A DNA stretch of 56,771 nucleotides from assembly GCA_030693045.1 (NCBI GenBank), contig JAUYBU010000048.1, forward strand, positions 1 through 56,771, in the 5' to 3' direction. The number at the start of each line of letters is the position of its first letter. The first letter of the stretch is position 1. The stretch comes from Bryobacterales bacterium (lineage in GTDB: Bacteria; Acidobacteriota; Terriglobia; Bryobacterales; Bryobacteraceae). Positions 46,670 to 56,771 of the stretch are shown one piece after another. Below the pieces are notes generated by a model that did not search any database, was not told the origin of the DNA, and was given only the letters and a program-made list of their open reading frames with translations. The translations under genes and the position numbers were made by a program.

Positions 46670-47098
46670 GTGAAAATCAGCACCAGGGTGCAATACGCAC
46701 TTCGCATGATGGCCGACGTTGCCAGGAACGGCGGCCAGGGAGAAGTTGTACCCGTCGGAGACATCGCCCGCCGCCAGAATCTCTCCAGGCTCTATCTTTC
46801 CCAACTGACGGTCCCGCTCAAGAACGCCGGCTTGCTGAAGAGCGTTTGGGGCAACAAAGGGGGCTTCGTACTTGGCCGGCCGGCAGGAGTAATCAAGGTG
46901 CTGGACATCATGGAGGCCGTGGACGGCCCGGTCTGCCTGATCGACTGCATTTACGATCCCACCTACTGCGATCGAACCGCGAATTGCGAATGCATACGAG
47001 TCTGGCGCGAGGTCAACGAAGGGATCGTCCGGACTCTGTCGAGTTGCACGCTGGAAGATCTCATCCACCCCAAAATAAACTCTGGAGCCCGGTCATGA
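46670..47098 (+). CDS. Rrf2-family transcriptional regulator (Cys-rich, probably cluster-binding)
   Basis: GTG start. MKISTRVQYALRMMADVA wHTH N-terminus. Cys cluster CLIDCIYDPTYCDRTANCEC at the position of the IscR/NsrR ligands. Confidence 0.85.
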   Translation: MKISTRVQYALRMMADVARNGGQGEVVPVGDIARRQNLSRLYLSQLTVPLKNAGLLKSVWGNKGGFVLGRPAGVIKVLDIMEAVDGPVCLIDCIYDPTYCDRTANCECIRVWREVNEGIVRTLSSCTLEDLIHPKINSGARS

Positions 47099-47646
47099 CC
47101 GCAACCGCGACGGCTACCACGCCGATCGAGAGGAAAGTGCACCAGACCGTCGTCCGCCTCATGCAAGGGGACCTGACGGCGCTGGAGGTAGACGCCTTCG
47201 TCCACTACGCCAAGGAGAATCTGGAACTCGGTTCCGGCTACGGGACCGCCATCCAGAGCCGCGGGGGCGGAGCGGTGAAGAAGGAAGTGGAAAAGATCGG
47301 CGGCATCCGGATGGGCGAGGCGGTGATGACCACGGCCGGCGGGATGGCGGCGAAACATATCATTCACGCCTGCGGGCCGAAATTCCAGGAATCGGACACG
47401 GAGGGCAAACTCCGCGACTGCATGAATTCGGCGCTGCAAATCGCCCGGGAGAACGGCCTGAAAAGCGTCGCCTTCCCGCCCATGGGCGCCGGGTTCTATG
47501 GCGTGCCCCTGGCGCTTTCCGCGCAAGTGATGATCGACGCGATCCGCAGCGCCGCCGCGGCCGGGACGCCGCCCGAAGTGATCATCATCTGCACGGTTGA
47601 CGGACGCGACTTCCTGGCATTCAAGAACCAGGTCGGGGCTCTTTGA
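47095..47646 (+). CDS. macro-domain protein (divergent motifs)
   Basis: The ATG overlaps the Rrf2 stop (ATGA). LMQGDLTALEVDAFVHYAKENLELGSGYGTAI...HIIHACGPKF aligns to the macro-domain pattern (qGDIt..vDAIVNAAN..l.gGgGV.gAI...HavGP), but the NAAN position reads HYAK. Confidence 0.75.
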   Translation: MTATATATTPIERKVHQTVVRLMQGDLTALEVDAFVHYAKENLELGSGYGTAIQSRGGGAVKKEVEKIGGIRMGEAVMTTAGGMAAKHIIHACGPKFQESDTEGKLRDCMNSALQIARENGLKSVAFPPMGAGFYGVPLALSAQVMIDAIRSAAAAGTPPEVIIICTVDGRDFLAFKNQVGAL

Positions 47647-47658
47647 CGAAAGGACGGC

Positions 47659-48351
47659 ATGGAATTGGATACCACTAGCCCGCTCTTGCACTTCGCGGAA
47701 GACAAGCTTCAGATCTTCGCGCTGTCCTTCAAGGCGCTGGTCTACATCCTGAAGATTCGCTGGATATTGAAATTTCCCGCCGGCAAAGACCGCCAGGCGC
47801 CCGGCGGGAGCCCTGACACGAGCGCGCAAAAGGGAGCGATCCACTCCCTATTTAACATCGCGTTGCCCTGGGAGATGGCCAGCACGCGCCAGCACCCATT
47901 CTTCTATGTCCAATTCGTGATCTTCCACATTGGCGTCGCCGCCTCCATTCTCATGTCGCTTCTAATTCCCTACGTTCCGGAATGGATCGCGGGCAGGGCC
48001 GCGGTGGTCGCGCTTCAGTCGATCTTCGCCGCGGCATTCCTGGTGGGGCTGGTCCGAATGGCGCGGCGTCTCACCGATCCATACATCCGCGGCATCAGCA
48101 CCCCGGACGATTATTTCTCGCTGGCACTGCTGGTGGTCTGGCTCGGGTTCAGTTTTCTGGCGGCGCCGAATGACCGTCAGTCCGGCGAGTGGCCGCTGCT
48201 GGCGTACTTCTTCCTGACGGCCTTCTTCCTGGTTTACGTTCCTTTCAGCAAGATCTCGCACTATCTTTTCTACCCGTTCGCGCGCTGGTATCTCGGCAGG
48301 ACGCTGGGGCACAGAGGCGTTTATCCGGTGAAATCGGGGGCGCGCGCATGA
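47659..48351 (+). CDS. NarI/DsrM-like membrane protein (nitrate reductase gamma-subunit fold), copy 1
   Basis: 230 aa and about 5 TM helices. Conserved His in helices (VIFHIG; FSKISHYLFYPF) resemble the heme-b ligand positions of the NarI/DsrM/HmeC family. Confidence 0.65.
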   Translation: MELDTTSPLLHFAEDKLQIFALSFKALVYILKIRWILKFPAGKDRQAPGGSPDTSAQKGAIHSLFNIALPWEMASTRQHPFFYVQFVIFHIGVAASILMSLLIPYVPEWIAGRAAVVALQSIFAAAFLVGLVRMARRLTDPYIRGISTPDDYFSLALLVVWLGFSFLAAPNDRQSGEWPLLAYFFLTAFFLVYVPFSKISHYLFYPFARWYLGRTLGHRGVYPVKSGARA

Positions 48352-50075
48352 GCGAGACAAGATCCTACAAGGCGCAGAAACTGGTCGAGCGGCTGCAAGT
48401 CAAGGTCAACCGCCAGATCATGCTCTCGCTCGAGGCGTGCGTGCATTGCGGCCTATGCACGGACCAATGCCACTACGTGCTGTCCAATCCGGGAGACGTG
48501 ACTTATGCCCCGGCCTACAAGGCGGACAGAATCCGAAAGCTGTTCAAGGCGCACATCGACTGGACGGGCAAGACGCTCCCCTGGTGGGTCGGCGCCAAGA
48601 GCGTTTACACGGACCAGGAATTGGAGGATCTCAAGGACACGGTCTTCGGCAAATGCACCAACTGCCGGCGCTGTTCGCTCAACTGCCCGATGGGCGTCGA
48701 CATGGCGGTATTCAACCGCATGGCGCGCGGGTTGCTGGTGCATGTCGGCGTGATGCCCGAGGGCGTGGCGGTGGTGGCCAAGGACCAGTGGGAAATCGGC
48801 AACCAGATGGGAGTGCTCAAGGAAGACTACCTCGAGACACTCACTTGGATGGAGGAAGAGTTACAGTCCGAGTACAACGATCACTCGATCCGGATTCCGA
48901 TCGACAAGATGGATGCCGATGTGGTCTACTCGATCAATCCGCGCGAGGCCAAATACGACCCTCGCACGATTGCCGAGGCGGCGGCCATCTTCCACTTCGC
49001 CGGCGAAAACTGGACCATGCCCAGCCAAGGCTGGGACATGACTAACTTCGGCCTGTTTAACGGCGACGACGAGTTGGGCGGCGCGGTGGGCGGCCGGTTG
49101 TATGACGCGGTCGAGCGGCTGCGCGGCAAGAAGCTGGTGATTTCCGAATGCGGGCACGGGTTCCGCTCGACCCGCTGCGAAGCGCCGAACTGGGGCAAGC
49201 GGGACGTGGCTTTCCCGATGGAAAGCGCCGTCATCACCATGCTCGGCTACATCAAGCAAGGCCGCATCCAGGTGGACAAGAGCAAGAACTCCGAGCCGGT
49301 TACCTACCACGATTCCTGCAACAACGCACGCAGTTGCGGCATGACGGAGGAACCTCGCGAACTGCTGAACCTGGTGTGTTCGGATTTCCGCGAGATGCAC
49401 CCCAACCGCGCCGAGAACTTCTGCTGCACCGGCGGCGGCGGCGCGATGTCGATGACCGAGTACGCTCCGCGGCGTCTCAAGTCGGCCCGGATCAAGGCCG
49501 ATCAACTGAAGGCCACCGGCGCTAAGATCGTTGTCACTTCCTGTCACAACTGCGTGGATGGCCTGTTCGATCTGATCAAGCACTACAAGCTCGACATGCA
49601 GGTGAAACTGCTGGTGAACCTGGTTGCCAGCGCGCTGGTGGTTCCGGAACGCCCCTCCAGGAAGATGAGGCCGCTGGAGGGATACAAGATTCTGGTCATC
49701 GACGACGAGCCGGATATCAGGGTCTACCTGGGCAAGATCTTCAAGGATCAGGGCTGCCTGGTCACCGAAGCGCCCGACGCCAACCAGGGCATGCGCGCCA
49801 TCAAGGCCGACAGACCCGATCTGGTCACGCTGGACCTGATTCTCCCTTACATGACGGGCGAGAAGCTGTACTGGGAATTGCGCAAGGACCAGAAGACCGC
49901 GGACCTGCCGGTGGTTATCGTGTCCGGGTATGCGGCGGTGGACTCGCCGAGGATCGACTTCTTCGGATTCCTTGCCGAAAAGCGTCTGCCGCAGCCCAAC
50001 GGATTCCTAGAAAAGCCGGTTGACCCGGAGAAGTTGATCGAGACGGTGCGGGCCGTTCTCCTGGAGAAGGCGTGA
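48348..50075 (+). CDS. HdrD/DsrK-like CCG-domain iron-sulfur protein fused to a C-terminal response-regulator receiver domain
   Basis: The ATG overlaps the upstream stop (ATGA). Two ferredoxin-type motifs (CVHCGLCTDQC, CTNCRRCSLNCP). CCG-type motifs (ECGHG, HDSCN, FCCTGGGG, SCHNC). The C-terminal about 125 aa, KILVIDDEPDIR...DLVTLDLILP...VVIVSG...EKP, has all canonical receiver residues. Confidence 0.8.
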   Translation: MSETRSYKAQKLVERLQVKVNRQIMLSLEACVHCGLCTDQCHYVLSNPGDVTYAPAYKADRIRKLFKAHIDWTGKTLPWWVGAKSVYTDQELEDLKDTVFGKCTNCRRCSLNCPMGVDMAVFNRMARGLLVHVGVMPEGVAVVAKDQWEIGNQMGVLKEDYLETLTWMEEELQSEYNDHSIRIPIDKMDADVVYSINPREAKYDPRTIAEAAAIFHFAGENWTMPSQGWDMTNFGLFNGDDELGGAVGGRLYDAVERLRGKKLVISECGHGFRSTRCEAPNWGKRDVAFPMESAVITMLGYIKQGRIQVDKSKNSEPVTYHDSCNNARSCGMTEEPRELLNLVCSDFREMHPNRAENFCCTGGGGAMSMTEYAPRRLKSARIKADQLKATGAKIVVTSCHNCVDGLFDLIKHYKLDMQVKLLVNLVASALVVPERPSRKMRPLEGYKILVIDDEPDIRVYLGKIFKDQGCLVTEAPDANQGMRAIKADRPDLVTLDLILPYMTGEKLYWELRKDQKTADLPVVIVSGYAAVDSPRIDFFGFLAEKRLPQPNGFLEKPVDPEKLIETVRAVLLEKA

Positions 50076-50080
50076 GACCC

Positions 50081-50171
50081 AATTTCGGGGACAGGCTACG
50101 AAATCCCGAAACTCGGCTTCGCGTCGCTGCCGGCAGGGTATTTCGGGATTTCGTAGCCTGTCCCCGAAATT
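50081..50171. repeat. 31-bp perfect inverted repeat
   Basis: AATTTCGGGGACAGGCTACGAAATCCCGAAA at 50081-50111 and its exact reverse complement at 50141-50171, with a 29-nt loop. It starts 6 nt after the stop at 50075 and ends 22 nt before the kinase ATG. Confidence 0.9.
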
Positions 50172-50192
50172 CGCTCTGAAAGGACGGTCGCA

Positions 50193-51629
50193 ATGACGGT
50201 TCAGCTCGACGGACTGGAAAACGCCGGCAGGCGGCTGTTTGACGAAGCTCCCTGCTACATCTCGATTCAGGACCGGGAATTTCGCGTTATCGACGCGAAC
50301 CGGGCGGTGTTGGAGGGGTTCGGCGACGCGATCTCCAAGAACTGCTATGCGGTCTTCAAGGGCCGGCGGGAGCGCTGCACGGAATGCCCGGTGGCGCACA
50401 CTTTCGAAGACGGCCGCGAACACTGCATCGAGGAAGTGATCTTCGACAGCCGGGGCTTGCCGCACGAGGTGATTGTCCGCACGCGGCCGCTGCGTGATGC
50501 GAGCGGCGCTGTCACGGCGGTGATGCAACTGTTCACCGACATTACCGTGCAGAAGGAATTGGAACACCGCCTGCACGAAAGCCTCAATCGTTTTCACAGC
50601 CTCTTCGACATTTCGCCTTGCTTCGTTTCGGTCCAGAACCGGGACCTGCGCGTGGTGGAGGCGAACACCCAATTCAAAGAGACTTTCGGAAACCCGGCGG
50701 GCAGACACTGCTACGAGATCTACAAGCGACACAAGGAGCGTTGCCCCGAGTGTCCGGTGCTGGAGTCATTCGCCGACGGCAAGGCGCATACCCGCGAGAG
50801 CGTCTGGGTGGACAGAAGCGGAAAAGAAGTGTTGGTGGTGGTGCAGACGGCGCCGATCCGCGACTCCCTCGGCAATGTCGTCGATGTGATGAAGGTGTCC
50901 ACCGACATCACCGAGGTCCGCGTGCTTCAGGACCAGCTCGCCTCTCTGGGCAAACTGGTCGGCGGCATCGCCCACAGCGTCAAGAACGTGCTCGAGGGGT
51001 TGCGCGGCGGCGTCTATATCGTCAATCTCGGGTTCCGCGATAACAATCAGGAGGACATTCGCACGGGCTGGGCCATGGTGGAGCGAAACGTCGCACGCAT
51101 CTCCAGCATGGTGATGGACATGCTCTACTGCGCCAAGGACCGCTCGCCGCGCCGGCTTCCGGTTTCGCTTCCCTCCGTGCTGGGCGAGGTTGTCGAGCTG
51201 TTCCGGCCACGCGCGACCGAATGCGGCATCCGGCTGGAAACGGAGGTCGCCGAGGGAGATTGCGTCGTGCCCGGCGAGCCGAAGGACATCCACTCGCTGA
51301 TCTCGAACCTGATCACGAACGCCATTGACGCATGTTGTTCCGAGCAGGACGGGAAGAAGCCGCACCGCGTGCTGGCGCGCGTACGCCGCGACGGAGATTG
51401 GGCCGTGCTGGAAGTGGAAGACAACGGCGCGGGCATGGACGAAGAGGCGCACGGGAAGCTGTTCACCACCTTCTACTCGACCAAGGGCGCATACGGCACC
51501 GGCCTGGGATTGCTGGTTTCCCACAAAGTGGCGACCGAGCATGGCGGAACGATTTCGGCCCGGTCGGCGCCGGGTGAAGGCGCCACATTCACGGTGAAAC
51601 TCCCCCTCCAAACCGGAGAGACCAAATGA
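50193..51629 (+). CDS. sensor histidine kinase with two Cys-rich PAS-like modules (cytoplasmic)
   Basis: 478 aa with no TM segment. Two similar N-terminal modules, each with 4 Cys. H-box IAHSVKNVLEGL, N-box ITNAIDAC, G-boxes EDNGAGMD and GTGLGL. Confidence 0.85.
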   Translation: MTVQLDGLENAGRRLFDEAPCYISIQDREFRVIDANRAVLEGFGDAISKNCYAVFKGRRERCTECPVAHTFEDGREHCIEEVIFDSRGLPHEVIVRTRPLRDASGAVTAVMQLFTDITVQKELEHRLHESLNRFHSLFDISPCFVSVQNRDLRVVEANTQFKETFGNPAGRHCYEIYKRHKERCPECPVLESFADGKAHTRESVWVDRSGKEVLVVVQTAPIRDSLGNVVDVMKVSTDITEVRVLQDQLASLGKLVGGIAHSVKNVLEGLRGGVYIVNLGFRDNNQEDIRTGWAMVERNVARISSMVMDMLYCAKDRSPRRLPVSLPSVLGEVVELFRPRATECGIRLETEVAEGDCVVPGEPKDIHSLISNLITNAIDACCSEQDGKKPHRVLARVRRDGDWAVLEVEDNGAGMDEEAHGKLFTTFYSTKGAYGTGLGLLVSHKVATEHGGTISARSAPGEGATFTVKLPLQTGETK

Positions 51630-52030
51630 AGAAGATACTCGTCGTTGACGATGAAGAAGACGTTCGCACTTACCTTGGCAGGCTCTTCCAGGAGAGCGGC
51701 TATGAGGTCGCCTGCGCCGGTGACGGCAACCAGGCGCTCGAGCAGGTCGAGAAGGAAAGACCGGACCTCATCACGCTCGATCTTTCGATGCCCGCGAAGT
51801 CGGGAGTGAAGTTTTACCGCGAGATCAAGGCGAAACCGGAACTGAGCGGCGTCGCGGTGGTTCTTGTAACCGGCGTCACCGGTCCGGGCGGTAGTGCGGC
51901 CGACACCGAGCGCTTTTACAGCACCAGGCGCCAGACGCCACCGCCGGACGGTTTCATAGCCAAGCCCATAGACCGCGAGGAAATACTCGACATCGTGAGC
52001 CGGCTGATTGGCCCCGGAGAACGGGCATGA
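51626..52030 (+). CDS. single-domain response regulator (receiver only)
   Basis: The ATG overlaps the kinase stop (ATGA). KILVVDDEEDVR...DLITLDLSMP...VLVTG...AKP. Confidence 0.9.
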   Translation: MKKILVVDDEEDVRTYLGRLFQESGYEVACAGDGNQALEQVEKERPDLITLDLSMPAKSGVKFYREIKAKPELSGVAVVLVTGVTGPGGSAADTERFYSTRRQTPPPDGFIAKPIDREEILDIVSRLIGPGERA

Positions 52031-52929
52031 CGCTGGCCGTGTATGTGATCATCTATGCCGCCGCGCTGGTCTTCCTGATCGCCTCGGTGGTGCGCGCGGT
52101 CCGGTACGCCAGGCTTCCGCTGCATTTGCGCTGGGAACTGTACCCTGTACCTCACGAGGAGCCCGAACGCGTGAAGCACGGAGGTTCTTACTTCGAAAAA
52201 GTGGACTGGTGGGAGAAACCGACTCACTTCAACTGGTGGGGCGAGGTGAAATTCATGACCCCCGAGATGCTCTTTCTGAAGGGCCTTTGGGAGTTCAATC
52301 GCAGTCTCTGGTTCCGCTCGTTCCCGTTCCATTTCGGCTTGTACCTGGTCCTCGCCACGATCGGGCTTCTGATCGCCAGCGTGCTGATTGGAACCTCCGC
52401 GCTGCACGCCTGCTACATGCTGACCGGGATCGCCGGCGCGGCGTTGACGGTTGCGGGCGCACTGGGCTTGCTCCTGCGCCGGTTGACGGACCCGAACCTC
52501 AAGAACGGCACTACGCCGGCCGACATATTCAACCTGGTATTCTTCGTCGTGGTCTTCGGCCTGCTCGCCGCCGGTTACCTGACGGCGGGGGCGAGCTTTC
52601 CGGGCATGTTGGTGCTGGTGCACGGCCTGCTGACTTTCAATGTGAGCGTCGATATCCCGCTGGTGCTCGCAGCGGGCCTGGTGCTGGGCGCTCTTCTCGC
52701 CGCTTACATCCCGCTTACTCACATGTCGCACTTCATCGCGAAGTACTTCACCTATCACTCGATACGCTGGGACGACGCGCCGAATCGTGGCGACGTCAGG
52801 CTGGCGAGGAGGATCGCCGCGAACCTTACTTACCGGCCGACATGGGCGGCGCCTCATATCGGCGCCGATGGCAAGAAGACCTGGGCCGAAATCGCGACCA
52901 CGAATCCAGCGTCAGGGACGAAGAAATGA
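52027..52929 (+). CDS. NarI/DsrM-like membrane protein, copy 2
   Basis: The ATG overlaps the upstream stop (ATGA). 300 aa, multi-TM. FPFHFGLY and IPLTHMSHFIAKYFTYHSIRWDD are typical of the DsrM/HmeC-type family. Confidence 0.75.
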   Translation: MTLAVYVIIYAAALVFLIASVVRAVRYARLPLHLRWELYPVPHEEPERVKHGGSYFEKVDWWEKPTHFNWWGEVKFMTPEMLFLKGLWEFNRSLWFRSFPFHFGLYLVLATIGLLIASVLIGTSALHACYMLTGIAGAALTVAGALGLLLRRLTDPNLKNGTTPADIFNLVFFVVVFGLLAAGYLTAGASFPGMLVLVHGLLTFNVSVDIPLVLAAGLVLGALLAAYIPLTHMSHFIAKYFTYHSIRWDDAPNRGDVRLARRIAANLTYRPTWAAPHIGADGKKTWAEIATTNPASGTKK

Positions 52930-54536
52930 AGAAGGCTCCAGTCCGGCTGGACGATCTTGCCGGCGCCGGGAAAAGGCCTCTGATCCATCTAGAGAACGAA
53001 GATCTGATGTCATTGCCCGCGCCCCTCGACCATCCTTCGAAGGATCACAACTGGCCGCCGCTCTCCGCGCAGGCCGGAGAGAAATTCGAGTGCTTCCTCG
53101 ACGACACGTGCGCGGTGAGCATTCCGCAACCGAAAACCAAGGAGGAAGAAGACGCACTGGTGGCCAAGTTCCTCTCCGGGTTGGACAAGCTCTTTGTCAA
53201 GGAGAATAACTGGAGCTTTCTTCAACCCCTGCTGCTGACCATGGAGCATTGCGCCAAGTGCCAGACGTGTTCCGAGGCGTGTCACATCTATGAAGCGTCG
53301 GGCCGGGAAGAGATCTACCGGCCGACCTTTCGCTCCGAAATCCTCCGGCGGCTGTACTTCAAGTACGTGAAACACGGAGGCATGCTTTCCTCCTGGCAGC
53401 ATGGAGCGATCACGCTGAACTGGCCTCTGGTGGCCCGGCTGATCGAACTGTCGTACCGCTGTAACCTCTGCCGCCGCTGTGCGCAGACCTGCCCTATCGG
53501 CGTCGACAACGGACTGGTAGCGCACGAACTCAGGAAGTTATTCAGCCAGGAAATGGGGATCGCGCCGAAAGAGATTCACGACAACGGCTCGATGCTTCAG
53601 CTCAGGGTCGGCTCTTCGACCGGCATGAACTCCGAAGTGGTCAAGGACAACATCGAGTTCATTGACGAGGACATCAGCGAGAAGGCCGGCATCCATGTGG
53701 AGACCCCGTGGGACGTCGAGGGCGCCGACGTGCTGCTGATTCACAACGCCGGCGAGATCATGGCCTGGCCCGAGAATCCCGGCGCGTTCGCCCTGATTCT
53801 CAACGCCGCCGGCATCAAGTGGACCCTGTCTTCCGAGATCGCCGGTTACGACTCCATCAACTACGGCCTGTGGTACGACGACGCCCAGTTCGCGCGCGTC
53901 GCGATCAAGCACGCCGAGGCGGCCAAGAAGCTGAAGGTAAAAAAGATCGTTCTGGGCGAATGCGGGCATGCGCACAAAGCGCTCTCCGTCATCGCGGACC
54001 GGATCCTCACCGGCGACCTGAACATCCCGCGCGAAAGTTCCATGACCCTGCTGCGCGACATCGTGATGAGCGATCGCATTAAGCTCGATCCCAGTCGGAA
54101 CGACTTTCCCGTGACGCTGCACGATCCCTGCAACCTGGTGCGGCTGATGGGCGTGGTGGAACCGCAGCGCGAGATCGTCCGCAAGATCTGTCCCAAGTTC
54201 CGGGAGATGGAGCCTCACGGCGTGGACAATTACTGTTGCGGCGGCGGAAGCGGCTTCGCCATTATGAGCGGCCACAATTTCGCCGACTGGCGATTCCACG
54301 TCTCCGGCCGGAAGAAGATCGAGCAGATCCTCAACGCCTTCGCCAACTGCACGGATGCCTCCATTCCGAAGTACGTCTGCGCCCCGTGCAGCAACTGCAA
54401 GGGGATGATCCGAGACATGATCGCGTACTACAATCTCTGGGAGAGCAACCGGATTCACTATGGCGGCCTGGTGGAACTGATCGTCAACGCCATGGTGGAC
54501 GTGAAGCCGGGTTTCATCGATTGGGAGTGGCGCTGA
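52926..54536 (+). CDS. HdrD/DsrK-like CCG-domain iron-sulfur protein, copy 2
   Basis: The ATG overlaps the upstream stop (ATGA). CAKCQTCSEAC and CNLCRRCAQTCP ferredoxin motifs. ECGHAHK, HDPCN, YCCGGGSG and CAPCSNC are CCG motifs. No receiver domain. Confidence 0.8.
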   Translation: MKKAPVRLDDLAGAGKRPLIHLENEDLMSLPAPLDHPSKDHNWPPLSAQAGEKFECFLDDTCAVSIPQPKTKEEEDALVAKFLSGLDKLFVKENNWSFLQPLLLTMEHCAKCQTCSEACHIYEASGREEIYRPTFRSEILRRLYFKYVKHGGMLSSWQHGAITLNWPLVARLIELSYRCNLCRRCAQTCPIGVDNGLVAHELRKLFSQEMGIAPKEIHDNGSMLQLRVGSSTGMNSEVVKDNIEFIDEDISEKAGIHVETPWDVEGADVLLIHNAGEIMAWPENPGAFALILNAAGIKWTLSSEIAGYDSINYGLWYDDAQFARVAIKHAEAAKKLKVKKIVLGECGHAHKALSVIADRILTGDLNIPRESSMTLLRDIVMSDRIKLDPSRNDFPVTLHDPCNLVRLMGVVEPQREIVRKICPKFREMEPHGVDNYCCGGGSGFAIMSGHNFADWRFHVSGRKKIEQILNAFANCTDASIPKYVCAPCSNCKGMIRDMIAYYNLWESNRIHYGGLVELIVNAMVDVKPGFIDWEWR

Positions 54537-54923
54537 GCGCGCCTTCGAGGACAGCTTCGATCTTGCGGCGCAATTCGGCCGCAAGACGTGGGCGGGCACG
54601 ATGAAGTCGCACGCCCCCGGGTCGTCGGCGACATTCACCGGAATGCCGCGCCGCTTCGCCTCGCGCTCGACACGCCGGTTTGCTTCACGGCAGTTGGTGG
54701 CCGCATATGCGAGACAGGCATCCTTCAAGTCCGAGGGACGAAACGCCCGCCCGATCCGTGTTACGGGTAGCGCGTCGAATTCGGCGGCCCAGGCGGGCGA
54801 GACGACGCTGACTCGCGCTCCCGCCTCGATCAGGCCTTTCGCTTTCCGCAGCCCCACCTTCCCGGCCCCCACCACCACGACGGCCTTTCCTCTCAGGTCA
54901 AGGAATATCGGATAGTGGCGCAT
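54514..54923 (-). pseudogene. SirC/CysG-N-like precorrin-2 dehydrogenase, apparently frameshifted and truncated
   Basis: MRHYPIFLDLRGKAVVVVGAGKVGLRKAKGLIEAGARV...NVADDPGACDFIVPAHV is a typical N-terminus. The expected RGxLxIAISTxGxSP segment is missing. The following family motif (LAAELRRKIEAVLEG) is in another frame and stops at 54514. The original frame runs on antisense through the neighbouring gene. Confidence 0.5.
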
Positions 54924-55254: not shown

Positions 55255-55944
55255 TCATGCGCTGAACTTGTAGCCGAGGCCGCGCAGCGTGAGGATGAAG
55301 CGCGGATGCCGCGGGTCGTCCTCCACCTTCTGGCGCAGCCAAGTGACATGCACGTCCACGGTGCGGGTGGTGGGCAGGGCGTCATAGCCCCACACCTCCC
55401 GTAGCAGCTCCTCGCGGGTGATCAGCGTGCCGCGGCGCTCGATGAGATATCGCAGGAGCTGGAACTCGCGCGCCGACAGGGGAACGGACTGGCCGCCGCG
55501 CGTCACCTGGCCAGCGCGGAAGTCCACCGTGGCGCCGCCGAAGCCGAAGGTGGCGGGCGTGGCGGGCGCCCCGTTGCGGCCGGCGCGGCGCAGCAAGGCT
55601 TGGATGCGCGCCATCAGCTCCGGGAACTCAAACGGCTTGGTGAGATAGTCGTCGGCCCCAAGCTGGAGCCCCACCACCTTGTCGACCAATTGGCCGCGCG
55701 CCGTCAGCATCAGAATCGGCGTGGCGATGTCCTGCCGGCGCAGGGCGCGGCAGATGTCCAGGCCGGACTTGCGCGGCAGCATGAGGTCCAAGAGGATGAG
55801 ATCATGCGCGGCCTCCAGTGCCGCGGCCAGGCCGGATTCGCCGTCGGTGCGCGAATCCACGGTGTAGCATTCGGCCAGCAGCCGGTCGGTGAGCGTGAGG
55901 ACCAGTCCGGGCTCGTCCTCGATCAGCAGGATGCGGGGGTTCAA
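55255..55944 (-). CDS. OmpR/PhoB-type response regulator
   Basis: 229 aa. ILLIEDEPGL...DLILLDLMLP receiver, then a winged-helix C-terminus (LSAREFQLLRYL...RGLGYKF). Confidence 0.9.
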   Translation of the reverse strand: MNPRILLIEDEPGLVLTLTDRLLAECYTVDSRTDGESGLAAALEAAHDLILLDLMLPRKSGLDICRALRRQDIATPILMLTARGQLVDKVVGLQLGADDYLTKPFEFPELMARIQALLRRAGRNGAPATPATFGFGGATVDFRAGQVTRGGQSVPLSAREFQLLRYLIERRGTLITREELLREVWGYDALPTTRTVDVHVTWLRQKVEDDPRHPRFILTLRGLGYKFSA

Positions 55945-56771
55945 GATGCCTCCTGGGAACAGGTGGGCAAAGTCAGCAGAAAGCGCGCGCCGCCGGAGGT
56001 CCGGTTTTCGGCGGTGAGCGTTCCGCCGTGGGATTCGGCGATGCGCCGCGCAAGCGTCAGGCCGAGGCCGAAGCCGCGCGTCTGGGCGTCCAGCGCCGCC
56101 CGGCCGCGGTAGAAGGGCTCGAACAGGTGCGGCAGGTCCTCGGCGGCGAAACCCCGGCCGCGATCGCTGACGGTGATCTGCACCTGGCCGTCCCGGCGCG
56201 CGGCGACCAGCTCGATGCGGCCTCCGGCGCCGCCATGCAGGGCGGCGTTGGCGATGAGGTTGCGGAGGCAGTGGGTAAGGGCCGCGGAGTCGGCCGGAAC
56301 AGGCGGCAACCCGGGCTCCAGGCGGAGGTCGAGCGCGACCTGGTTTTCCCGCAACTCGGCGGAGCAGGCCTGGACGGCGGCCTGTAGGATAGGCTCGAGT
56401 TCGGCCGGCCGCGGTGGTGGCTCCACGCGCCCGCTCCGGATGTCGGCGTAACGCAGGATCTGCTCCACCATGGCGGTCAGGCGGCGGCCCTCGGACTGGA
56501 TCAGCGCGCCGTACTGGCGGACCTGCGGCGGGGCGGCGACCACGCCATCGGCCAGGTTGCCGGCGGCGGCGCCGATGACCGAGAGCGGCGTGCGTAGCTC
56601 GTGGGAAACGCCGGCGACAAATTCCATCTGCCGGCGGGCCAGCCGCTCGGCGCGGCGCGTGGCCACCGTGAGGGCGGCCAGGGCGGCGGCCAGCAGCATC
56701 AGCACGGCGGCGCTTAGGGTCAGATTGCGGTAGCGCGTGACCGCGACGGCCTGCTCCAGCCCGCCGGAGCG
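55941..56771 (-). CDS. sensor histidine kinase (N-terminus beyond window end)
   Basis: HisKA H-box FVAGVSHELRTPL and HATPase motifs (NLIANAALHG, DRGRGF, GFGLGL). The reading frame stays open upstream of the track start to the window edge and includes a TM helix. The stop overlaps the regulator start. Confidence 0.85.
   Translation of the reverse strand, partial: RSGGLEQAVAVTRYRNLTLSAAVLMLLAAALAALTVATRRAERLARRQMEFVAGVSHELRTPLSVIGAAAGNLADGVVAAPPQVRQYGALIQSEGRRLTAMVEQILRYADIRSGRVEPPPRPAELEPILQAAVQACSAELRENQVALDLRLEPGLPPVPADSAALTHCLRNLIANAALHGGAGGRIELVAARRDGQVQITVSDRGRGFAAEDLPHLFEPFYRGRAALDAQTRGFGLGLTLARRIAESHGGTLTAENRTSGGARFLLTLPTCSQEAS

Follow-up and report, generated by a model that had tools for sequence, protein, structure and literature searches.

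A Receiver Domain Fused to a DsrK/HmcF-Type Iron-Sulfur Protein of Bryobacterales: Architecture, Distribution and a Possible Role in Gating a Quinone-Linked Reductase

The Fused Iron-Sulfur Protein

This report concerns an iron-sulfur (Fe-S) protein that carries a receiver domain at its C-terminus. Its gene lies in a stretch of 56,771 nucleotides from a Bryobacterales bacterium (GenBank assembly GCA_030693045.1, contig JAUYBU010000048.1), which as a whole is called the window below. The open reading frame (ORF), at 48348-50075 on the + strand, encodes 575 amino acids and is translated without an internal stop. Its ATG overlaps the stop codon of a membrane-protein gene (47659-48351), and a histidine kinase gene, the gene of a stand-alone receiver (REC2) and a second pair of membrane and Fe-S protein genes lie downstream. 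A scan with one genome per species returned 297 relatives. The locus counts given below cover the best 80 of these, and the conservation counts refer to 65 full-length orthologues of the fused protein, 53 of the kinase and 63 of the membrane protein.

The catalytic Fe-S part comprises residues 1-435 (48348..49652, +). It is recognised by Pfam Fer4_8 (residues 28-117, E 2.4e-10), by a single Pfam CCG match (residues 318-402, E 2.4e-11) and by several NCBIfam models. Two ferredoxin motifs of the form CX2CX2CX3C, C31-C34-C37-C41 and C103-C106-C109-C113, mark the [4Fe-4S] sites (48438-48470 and 48654-48686, +). One complete five-cysteine CCG motif is present (C324/C330, C359-C360 and C399-x2-C402; 49317-49553, +), spelled CCT (CCT-GGGG) in this protein, not CCG. 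The other CCG motif is reduced to the cysteine of a SECGH sequence (C268, codon at 49149-49151, +) and to C277. These 16 cysteines are all 100% conserved among the orthologues.

The best curated matches of the Fe-S part were the NCBIfam models of HmcF (348 bits), TmcB (317 bits) and DsrK (247 bits), and in each case the score stayed below the equivalog cut-off (750 for NF045711, 735 for NF045724 and 400 for NF045796, respectively). A single CCG motif together with a T/GECGH cysteine is the signature of DsrK, HmcF and TmcB, whereas HdrD and HdrB have two CCG motifs (PMC10861901). Subunits of this type act at the last step of sulfite respiration. The chemistry of DsrK and the role of its GECGH cysteine have been described (PMC10861901; bioRxiv 10.64898/2026.08.25.746951). 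The initial annotation of the window had described an HdrD-like protein with two ferredoxin and two CCG motifs. The ferredoxin motifs were found as described; instead of two CCG motifs there is one complete motif plus the SECGH cysteine, and this one-CCG plus ECGH pattern is of the DsrK/HmcF/TmcB type. HdrD proper could be ruled out, since there is a single Pfam CCG match and C268 and C277 are the sole remnant of the other motif. Based on the two ferredoxin motifs, the one five-cysteine CCG motif, the conserved ECGH cysteine and the fold, the protein is a distinct family within the DsrK/HmcF/TmcB group of CCG iron-sulfur proteins, which belong to the HdrD superfamily.

The C-terminal receiver (residues 447-572; 49686..50075 including the stop codon, +) was assigned from its Pfam Response_reg match (residues 448-567, E 1.6e-17), its conserved residues and its fold. 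All the sequence strings for which it had first been recognised are present: VIDDEP with the acidic pair D452 and D453 (49701-49706, +), VTLDLILP with the phospho-acceptor D496 (49833-49835, +), VVIVSG with S526, and EKP with K556. The switch aromatic is F553. D452, D453 and D496 are invariant (65 of 65), position 526 is Thr or Ser in every orthologue, and K556 and Y/F553 are each kept in 64 of 65. In the orthologue loci the receiver is 31-72% identical to that of the window protein, and the Fe-S part 67-85%; for the receiver part in non-acidobacterial loci, the identity is only 28-40%. Because the active-site residues are kept at such low overall identity, the alignment suggests a working phospho-acceptor, not a pseudo-receiver, with catalytic residues under strong purifying selection. 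The best curated receiver model is the DVU0259 family (NF045717), at 81 bits against a cut-off of 160. The segment from beta4 to beta5 is unusual and is common to this receiver and REC2.

Between the two parts lies a flexible linker (residues 436-446; 49653..49685, +), defined by its length variation and by low confidence in the predicted structure. The segment between residues 431 and 447 ranges from 15 to 74 residues among the orthologues. An earlier model built from 15 close sequences was poor (predicted local distance difference test score, pLDDT, of 66). The final model was built from 83 sequences and has a mean pLDDT of 89, with each domain confident, a predicted template-modelling score (pTM) of 0.72 and a pLDDT below 50 at residues 437-439 of the linker. 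The receiver was modelled as five strand-helix units, that is, a (beta-alpha)5 fold (residues 447-574, pLDDT 80-93). Foldseek matched it to Spo0F, RR468, PhoB and CheY with target-normalised TM-scores of 0.82-0.88. For the Fe-S/CCG part, the top Foldseek match was EtfD (9ojn; E 5e-16, 469 aligned columns), followed by LutA and HdrB.

Distribution and Evolution

The fused ORF is complete, single and continuous in 64 of the 80 loci, and in another four it is interrupted by the end of a contig. Two loci (L071 and L075) have a split form, in which the gene of the Fe-S protein adjoins a gene for a receiver of 137-141 residues. One locus, L062, from a long-read metagenome-assembled genome (MAG), has a frameshift-like break. 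The remaining nine have no receiver. The fused forms span at least 10 phylum-level groups; among the groups to which the 80 loci are assigned are Acidobacteriota, Gemmatimonadota, Planctomycetota, Zixibacteria, Ignavibacteria/Kapaibacteria, Myxococcota, Syntrophaceae-like Deltaproteobacteria, Calditrichaeota and Abyssobacteria. Both the CCG and the receiver Pfam domains are present in every one of the best 120 protein clusters from ENA, JGI, NCBI and Logan (72-95% identity, 555-600 residues). They are named “response regulator” only at NCBI and “Fe-S oxidoreductase/CheY-like” at JGI.

When a library is clustered at 50% identity, the fused form amounts to essentially a single family. Among the best 150 matches there, just one further representative, P0121 (53% identity), is fused and full-length, and none of the more distant CCG relatives in that library (27-44% identity) has a receiver. 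A chimeric query of REC2 joined to the DsrK-like paralog of the window (DsrK2) found no receiver in any of the 120 best clusters of DsrK2 orthologues, so that independent fusions in this paralog family can be ruled out for these clusters. The domain-architecture and phyletic search thus places the fusion of CCG and Response_reg in one orthologous family that extends over the phylum-level groups named above. The architecture had initially been called unusual. It is not rare, being found in 64 of 80 genomes and at least 120 metagenomic clusters, but it is confined to one orthologous family. A full-text literature search found no paper in which a DsrK/HmcF-type protein with a fused receiver is mentioned. 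The fusion is thus a genuine and widespread architecture that has yet to be characterised.

A neighbour-joining distance tree of the Fe-S part, rooted with the DsrK-like paralog and without support values, gave P0121 and L076, both fused, as the basal members of the family. Receiver-less and split forms fall inside fused clades, and the proteins of dsrC operons, together with those fused to DsrC-like domains, form the sister group. Since the basal members are fused and the unfused and split members are nested, the fusion looks ancestral to the family. Going by this topology, it looks to have been followed by later losses of the receiver, in which the kinase was lost too, and by at least one fission.

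The Gene Cassette

The gene order was derived by tblastn of the neighbour proteins of the window against the 80 loci. The cassette consists of a varying transcription factor, a Macro-domain protein, an HmcE-like membrane protein, the fused protein (CCG::REC), a kinase with two PAS domains and REC2, and this order is conserved across phyla. A pair of NarI-like and DsrK-like genes often follows the cassette, or is inverted, or lies upstream. The nine receiver-less loci retain the Macro-HmcE-CCG module, and beside it there is neither a kinase nor a receiver gene. Receiver, kinase and REC2 thus form a unit that is present or absent as a whole. No DNA-binding response regulator was found in the cassette in the 80 loci.

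The membrane protein (47659..48351, +) is an HmcE/TmcC/NarI-like integral subunit. It matched the NCBIfam models HmcE (E 1.1e-16) and TmcC (E 2.1e-12), each under the curated cut-off, and Pfam Nitrate_red_gam (E 0.0017), and it is 46-71% identical across the 80 loci. Just two histidines, H90 and H201, are invariant. Cytochromes b of the NarI/DsrM type use four histidines for two haems, and the HmcE-like subunit may thus bind a single haem. It is presumed to be the quinone-side partner of the fused protein.

The histidine kinase (50193..51629, +) is adjacent to the fused gene, as the initial annotation had stated. It has two PAS domains (Pfam PAS_4, twice), a phospho-His region with H261, and an ATPase domain (HATPase_c, E 2.2e-26). 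No membrane segment is apparent, which indicates a soluble protein. H261 is conserved in 100% of the orthologues, and the kinase gene lies 3' of the fused or split receiver in nearly all loci. Each PAS domain (together residues 1-246; window 50193-50930) contains four cysteines, C21/51/62/65 and C143/173/184/187, in the pattern C-x29-C-x10-C-x2-C. Conservation is 96% or more for seven of the eight and 81% for C21. No solved homologue of these four-cysteine PAS domains was found; the pattern is probably a metal or Fe-S sensing site.

REC2 (51626..52030, +; Pfam Response_reg E 1.6e-22) is a paralog of the fused receiver, to which it is 38% identical. Its best NCBIfam match is again the DVU0259 family, at 101 bits against the cut-off of 160. 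It begins a chain of three overlapping genes. Of the other two, the first encodes a second, DsrM-like membrane subunit of the NarI type (NarI2; 52027..52929, +; Nitrate_red_gam E 8.4e-10), and the second encodes DsrK2 (52926..54536, +; NCBIfam DsrK 325 bits, cut-off 400). In many loci the second NarI-like gene is likewise paired with a DsrK-like gene. DsrK2 has 536 residues, is 29% identical to the Fe-S part of the fused protein and has no receiver, in line with the initial annotation. The number of receivers varies at some loci. At L047 (8001-12339), a second receiver gene directly follows the fused one, and more receivers lie on the opposite strand; in L060, L061 and L067, a second kinase and two stand-alone receivers lie 5' of the DsrMK-like pair.

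Upstream of the membrane subunit lies the gene of a small Macro-domain protein (47098..47646, +; Pfam Macro E 4.3e-28) of the type that binds or hydrolyses ADP-ribose. By tblastn, it stands directly 5' of the HmcE-like gene in 77 of the 80 loci, whether the CCG protein is fused or not, and the other three loci begin too near a contig end. Its nearest solved structures are TTHA0132, the macrodomain of PARP14 and MacroD2. The Macro protein was considered as a thiol substrate and rejected, as the orthologue alignment contains no conserved cysteine. In the sister family, the position of the Macro gene is occupied by dsrC.

In the lineage of the window, within the Acidobacteriota, the first gene of the cassette encodes an Rrf2-family transcription factor (46670..47098, +; Pfam Rrf2 E 6.8e-34), the stop of which abuts the Macro start. 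Its C-terminal half contains a cysteine cluster of the pattern C-x3-C-x6-C-x5-C-x-C, and it is probably an Fe-S-sensing member of the Rrf2 family. An Rrf2 gene precedes Macro in the window and in many acidobacterial and myxococcal loci. Outside Acidobacteriota, other regulators take this place. In 15 loci it is a sigma-54 activator that combines a low-molecular-weight phosphatase/ArsC-like domain at its N-terminus with a PAS domain. In about 20 loci it is a MerR-type regulator, either a MerR helix-turn-helix protein with a degenerate receiver (14 loci) or a MerR protein (8 loci). Such alternative upstream regulators are found, for example, at L012 1536-3281, L014 5872-6639, L015 5841-6350 and L033 12073-12615, plus equivalents. 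Gemmatimonadota and Planctomycetota have a MerR-like protein with a cysteine-rich C-terminal tail between REC2 and the DsrMK-like pair.

The presence of two receivers, the lack of a DNA-binding response regulator, the differing upstream regulators and the joint loss of receiver and kinase favour an output that is not transcriptional. Of the suggestion that the receiver acts post-translationally rather than on transcription, the gene context thus supports the second half, whereas the gating itself is inferred.

An inverted repeat with 37-nt arms, 95% complementary, fills the gap between the fused gene and the kinase gene (50075..50177, no strand assigned). The RNA fold has an energy of -70.5 kcal/mol (z -7.4). 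Within the window the repeat is present once; nothing comparable was found in nine related loci, and no Rfam family scored above its gathering threshold. A conserved regulatory RNA was therefore rejected. It may be a lineage-specific palindromic insertion, or a hairpin that processes or stabilises the transcript.

Convergent with the 3' end of DsrK2, at about 54540-54923 (-), there is a gene resembling the N-terminal part of precorrin-2 dehydrogenase/siroheme synthase (NAD_binding_7, DsrV/SirC-type). The similarity is lost after about 115 residues and a SirC-like C-terminal stretch lies in a different frame; a frameshift or a truncation may have affected the gene. Further downstream are an unrelated OmpR-type response regulator (55255-55944, -) and a histidine kinase (55941-56705, -), both read from their translations only. 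The remaining genes of the window have housekeeping or carbohydrate functions (FtsK, BacA, a metallo-beta-lactamase-fold protein, a URO-D-like protein, an alpha-L-fucosidase and an amino-acid permease).

Clues to the Substrate

In 13 loci, dsrC or dsrAB adjoins the module. In four receiver-less loci from Thermodesulfovibrionia/Nitrospirota (L070, L074, L079 and L080), a canonical dsrC encoding both C-terminal cysteines directly follows the CCG gene. In L065, a Terracidiphilus MAG, the module lies immediately upstream of dsrAB-like genes. Two fused, Syntrophaceae-like loci (L043 and L053) have the order dsrA-dsrB-...-dsrC-Macro-HmcE-CCG::REC-kinase-REC2-NarI-DsrK, and four other fused loci (L026, L027, L039 and L057) have a gene for a tandem-DsrC protein upstream.

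The sister family (P0126 and P0341, 43% identity) is encoded in an operon of dsrC, a membrane protein and the CCG protein. A cysteine desulfurase gene is convergent with this operon, and in a Zixibacteria genome an ADP-ribosylglycohydrolase gene is nearby. In P0127 (44% identity), a DsrC-like domain is fused at the very C-terminal position that the receiver occupies here, which suggests that the C-terminus is near the substrate dock. This DsrC-like domain is a homologue of the substrate of DsrK-type enzymes but does not have the C-terminal cysteine pair. Taken together, the Dsr neighbours, the sister operon and the P0127 fusion point to a DsrC-type substrate with protein-bound sulfur.

Relation to Known Systems

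The nearest relatives outside the family are P0127 and the dsrC-operon proteins P0126 and P0341 (43-44% identity). They share the Fe-S part and a small membrane partner with the fused protein. However, they have a DsrC-like protein in place of the receiver, and neither a kinase nor a Macro gene.

Among characterised proteins, HmcF and TmcB of Desulfovibrio (Nitratidesulfovibrio) vulgaris also have one CCG motif plus the T/GECGH cysteine and a NarI-like membrane partner. The present locus differs from the Hmc and Tmc complexes in having a Macro gene and in that the receiver is fused rather than separately encoded. No multihaem cytochrome c or other Hmc/Tmc subunit genes were found in the locus flanks, and an identity as an Hmc or Tmc complex was ruled out because no cytochrome c genes lie alongside. 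Downstream of hmcF in D. vulgaris come rrf1 and rrf2, described as regulators of hmc expression, and Rrf1 (DVU_0530) has been discussed among CheY-like receiver proteins. We take Rrf1 to be a receiver-only protein, and the genes DVU0258-0260, including DVU0259, presumably lie beside the tmc genes in D. vulgaris. The hmcF-rrf1-rrf2 set consists of the same parts as the Rrf2 ... HmcE-HmcF::REC cassette of the window. Based on the fusion and its natural split forms, a Rosetta-stone argument can be made that such receivers act on the HmcF-type subunit itself through a physical link.

DsrK of the DsrMK(JOP) complex has the same cofactor and catalytic cysteine motifs and a membrane partner of the cytochrome b type, and relatives of the fused protein lie beside dsrC or dsrAB. 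In contrast to DsrK, the fused protein scores below the cut-off, is only 29% identical to the DsrK-like paralog of the window and carries a receiver. No dsrJOP genes were found near it. Paralogs named dsrM2 and dsrK2 have been described upstream of dsrAB in acidobacterial MAGs (Hausmann et al., bioRxiv 10.1101/197269), and the arrangement in L065 matches this description.

More distant comparisons can be made with three other systems. HdrD of the methanogen HdrED complex belongs to the same superfamily and also combines two ferredoxin-type clusters, the CCG fold and a membrane cytochrome b partner, but it has two full CCG motifs and acts on CoM-S-S-CoB. EtfD of Mycobacterium smegmatis (9ojn), besides being the top structural match, is also the best sequence match in the PDB, yet at 17% identity. 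In EtfD, the membrane domain is fused on, there is no receiver, and electrons pass from the electron-transfer flavoprotein (ETF) to menaquinone, which is not DsrC-type chemistry. CheB and other response regulators with enzymatic output likewise have a receiver and an enzyme on one chain, where phosphorylation is expected to relieve or impose inhibition. Unlike in CheB, the receiver here is C-terminal and the output is a redox Fe-S subunit of a membrane complex; the output domains are not homologous.

Proposed Mechanism and Alternatives

Our preferred reading, to which a probability of about 0.5 is assigned, is protein-level gating of a quinone-linked, DsrC-type reductase by the adjacent kinase. 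The fused protein and its HmcE-like partner would make up a quinone-linked iron-sulfur oxidoreductase of two subunits, in which the fused protein is the cytoplasmic, catalytic one. Its two [4Fe-4S] clusters would feed a CCG-bound non-cubane cluster beside the catalytic SECGH cysteine, and the likeliest substrate would be a sulfur-carrying DsrC or DsrC-like protein. The four-cysteine PAS domains of the kinase are plausible sensors of redox state, O2 or nitric oxide. The kinase, as putative phospho-donor, would phosphorylate Asp496 of the fused receiver and Asp52 of REC2. In the former, phosphorylation would change the alpha4-beta5-alpha5 face via the Thr/Ser526 and Tyr/Phe553 switch, and the altered face may open or block the substrate dock or shift the oligomeric state, with a CheB-like effect on activity. 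Electron flow between the quinone pool and the substrate would thereby be switched at the protein level, and transcription of the operon would be left to a separate one-component regulator, which is Rrf2 in the lineage of the window. Since orthologues of 72-81% identity have no kinase, the enzyme appears to have a conserved substrate of its own, and the two-component system would be an added layer of control.

Several observations weigh against this reading. The receiver is much less conserved than the Fe-S part, and orthologues without a receiver or kinase exist, meaning that the enzyme works without such control. With a pTM of 0.72 and a disordered linker, the receiver is not confidently positioned against the catalytic part in the model, and the variation in linker length argues against a rigid occluding geometry. 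The top structural match, EtfD, is a CCG protein that is not a thiol reductase, and neither dsrC nor dsrAB was found in the 56.8-kb window. The alpha1 helix of receivers usually carries kinase specificity. This helix is more alike between the fused receiver and REC2 than the whole domain is (identity 0.55 against 0.40), which by itself speaks for a shared kinase, but the similarity is 0.55 within a locus and only slightly lower, 0.49, between loci. A locus-specific alpha1 match was thus set aside as too weak a signal of a shared kinase.

A broader version of the same scheme can be put forward only tentatively. Here, the Cys-rich-PAS kinase would switch a respiratory DsrC-type reductase via the built-in receiver, and REC2 may balance two DsrMK-type modules, for instance reductive against oxidative operation, or sulfur against oxygen respiration.

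An alternative that we regard as unlikely is that the fused receiver is a phosphate sink, which competes with REC2 for the phosphoryl groups of the kinase and accepts or loses phosphate at a rate set by the Fe-S redox state. REC2 would then be the true output, with the DsrMK-like pair or some other target as its possible point of action, and the amount of phosphorylated REC2 would follow the state of the quinone pool. Each cassette does have two paralogous receivers for one kinase, and C-terminal receivers are typical of relay and sink proteins such as hybrid kinases and CheV. REC2 overlaps the NarI2-DsrK2 run in the window, is contiguous with it in at least eight other loci, and directly follows DsrK2 in L032 and L052. 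However, many loci have REC2 but no NarI2-DsrK2 within 8 kb, and the 120 best clusters of DsrK2 orthologues contain no DsrK2::REC fusion. Moreover, a domain that is nothing but a sink would have no need of attachment to one particular enzyme in 64 genomes of at least 10 phylum-level groups.

It has also been considered that the enzyme is the input of the sensor. The receiver would tether the kinase, and the CCG site would reduce or oxidise the four-cysteine sites of the PAS domains, so that the complex reports the redox state of the quinone pool to the kinase in an enzymatic version of ArcB-type quinone sensing. CCG proteins of the DsrK/HmcF type do carry out thiol/disulfide chemistry on protein substrates, the four cysteines of each PAS domain are kept as described, and the kinase and receiver co-occur with the module. 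The same 72-81%-identical orthologues without a kinase nevertheless imply that the conserved substrate is something else, and C-x29-C-x10-C-x2-C would seem to resemble a metal or Fe-S site more than a disulfide pair. We know of no precedent for a receiver that serves only as a tether and retains all five catalytic residues plus the switch aromatic. This possibility is regarded as quite improbable.

Still less credible is a pseudo-receiver, that is, a structural or assembly domain for dimerisation or partner docking which is no longer phosphorylated. The receiver does evolve much faster than the Fe-S part, and its beta4-beta5 segment, in common with that of REC2, is atypical. Against this, the acidic pair, D496 and T/S526 are invariant, and K556 and the aromatic are nearly so, at 28-40% identity, and a kinase with an invariant phospho-His is adjacent in nearly all loci. 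Finally, an assembly artefact, in which a missed stop or frameshift joined two genes, can be rejected with near certainty despite the natural split versions in L071 and L075 and the frameshift-like break in the long-read L062, because the ORF of the window is continuous and the same fused ORF recurs in 64 independent assemblies and at least 120 protein clusters from five sources.

Significance

To our knowledge, the outputs described for two-component systems are almost wholly transcriptional, apart from a few enzymes, among them CheB and the diguanylate cyclases. A receiver within a respiratory Fe-S subunit would be a new output class. It would let a redox or O2 signal reach respiration quickly, at the level of the protein. 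On the broader version of the scheme, Rrf1, encoded beside hmcF in Desulfovibrio, would be expected to act on HmcF itself and not on transcription. The natural fused, split and receiver-less forms are a ready comparative system, and the proposal, noteworthy for specialists in sulfur metabolism or two-component systems, is directly testable.

Dissimilatory sulfur metabolism still lacks an account of how electron flow through DsrMK-type complexes is controlled. One acidobacterium, at least, alternates between respiring oxygen and respiring sulfate (PMC10564751). The groups that bear the cassette dominate soils, wetlands and sediments, where their sulfur cycling affects carbon turnover. If the broader version of the scheme is true, dissimilatory sulfur electron flow would be under phosphorylation control in the many newly recognised Dsr-bearing phyla.

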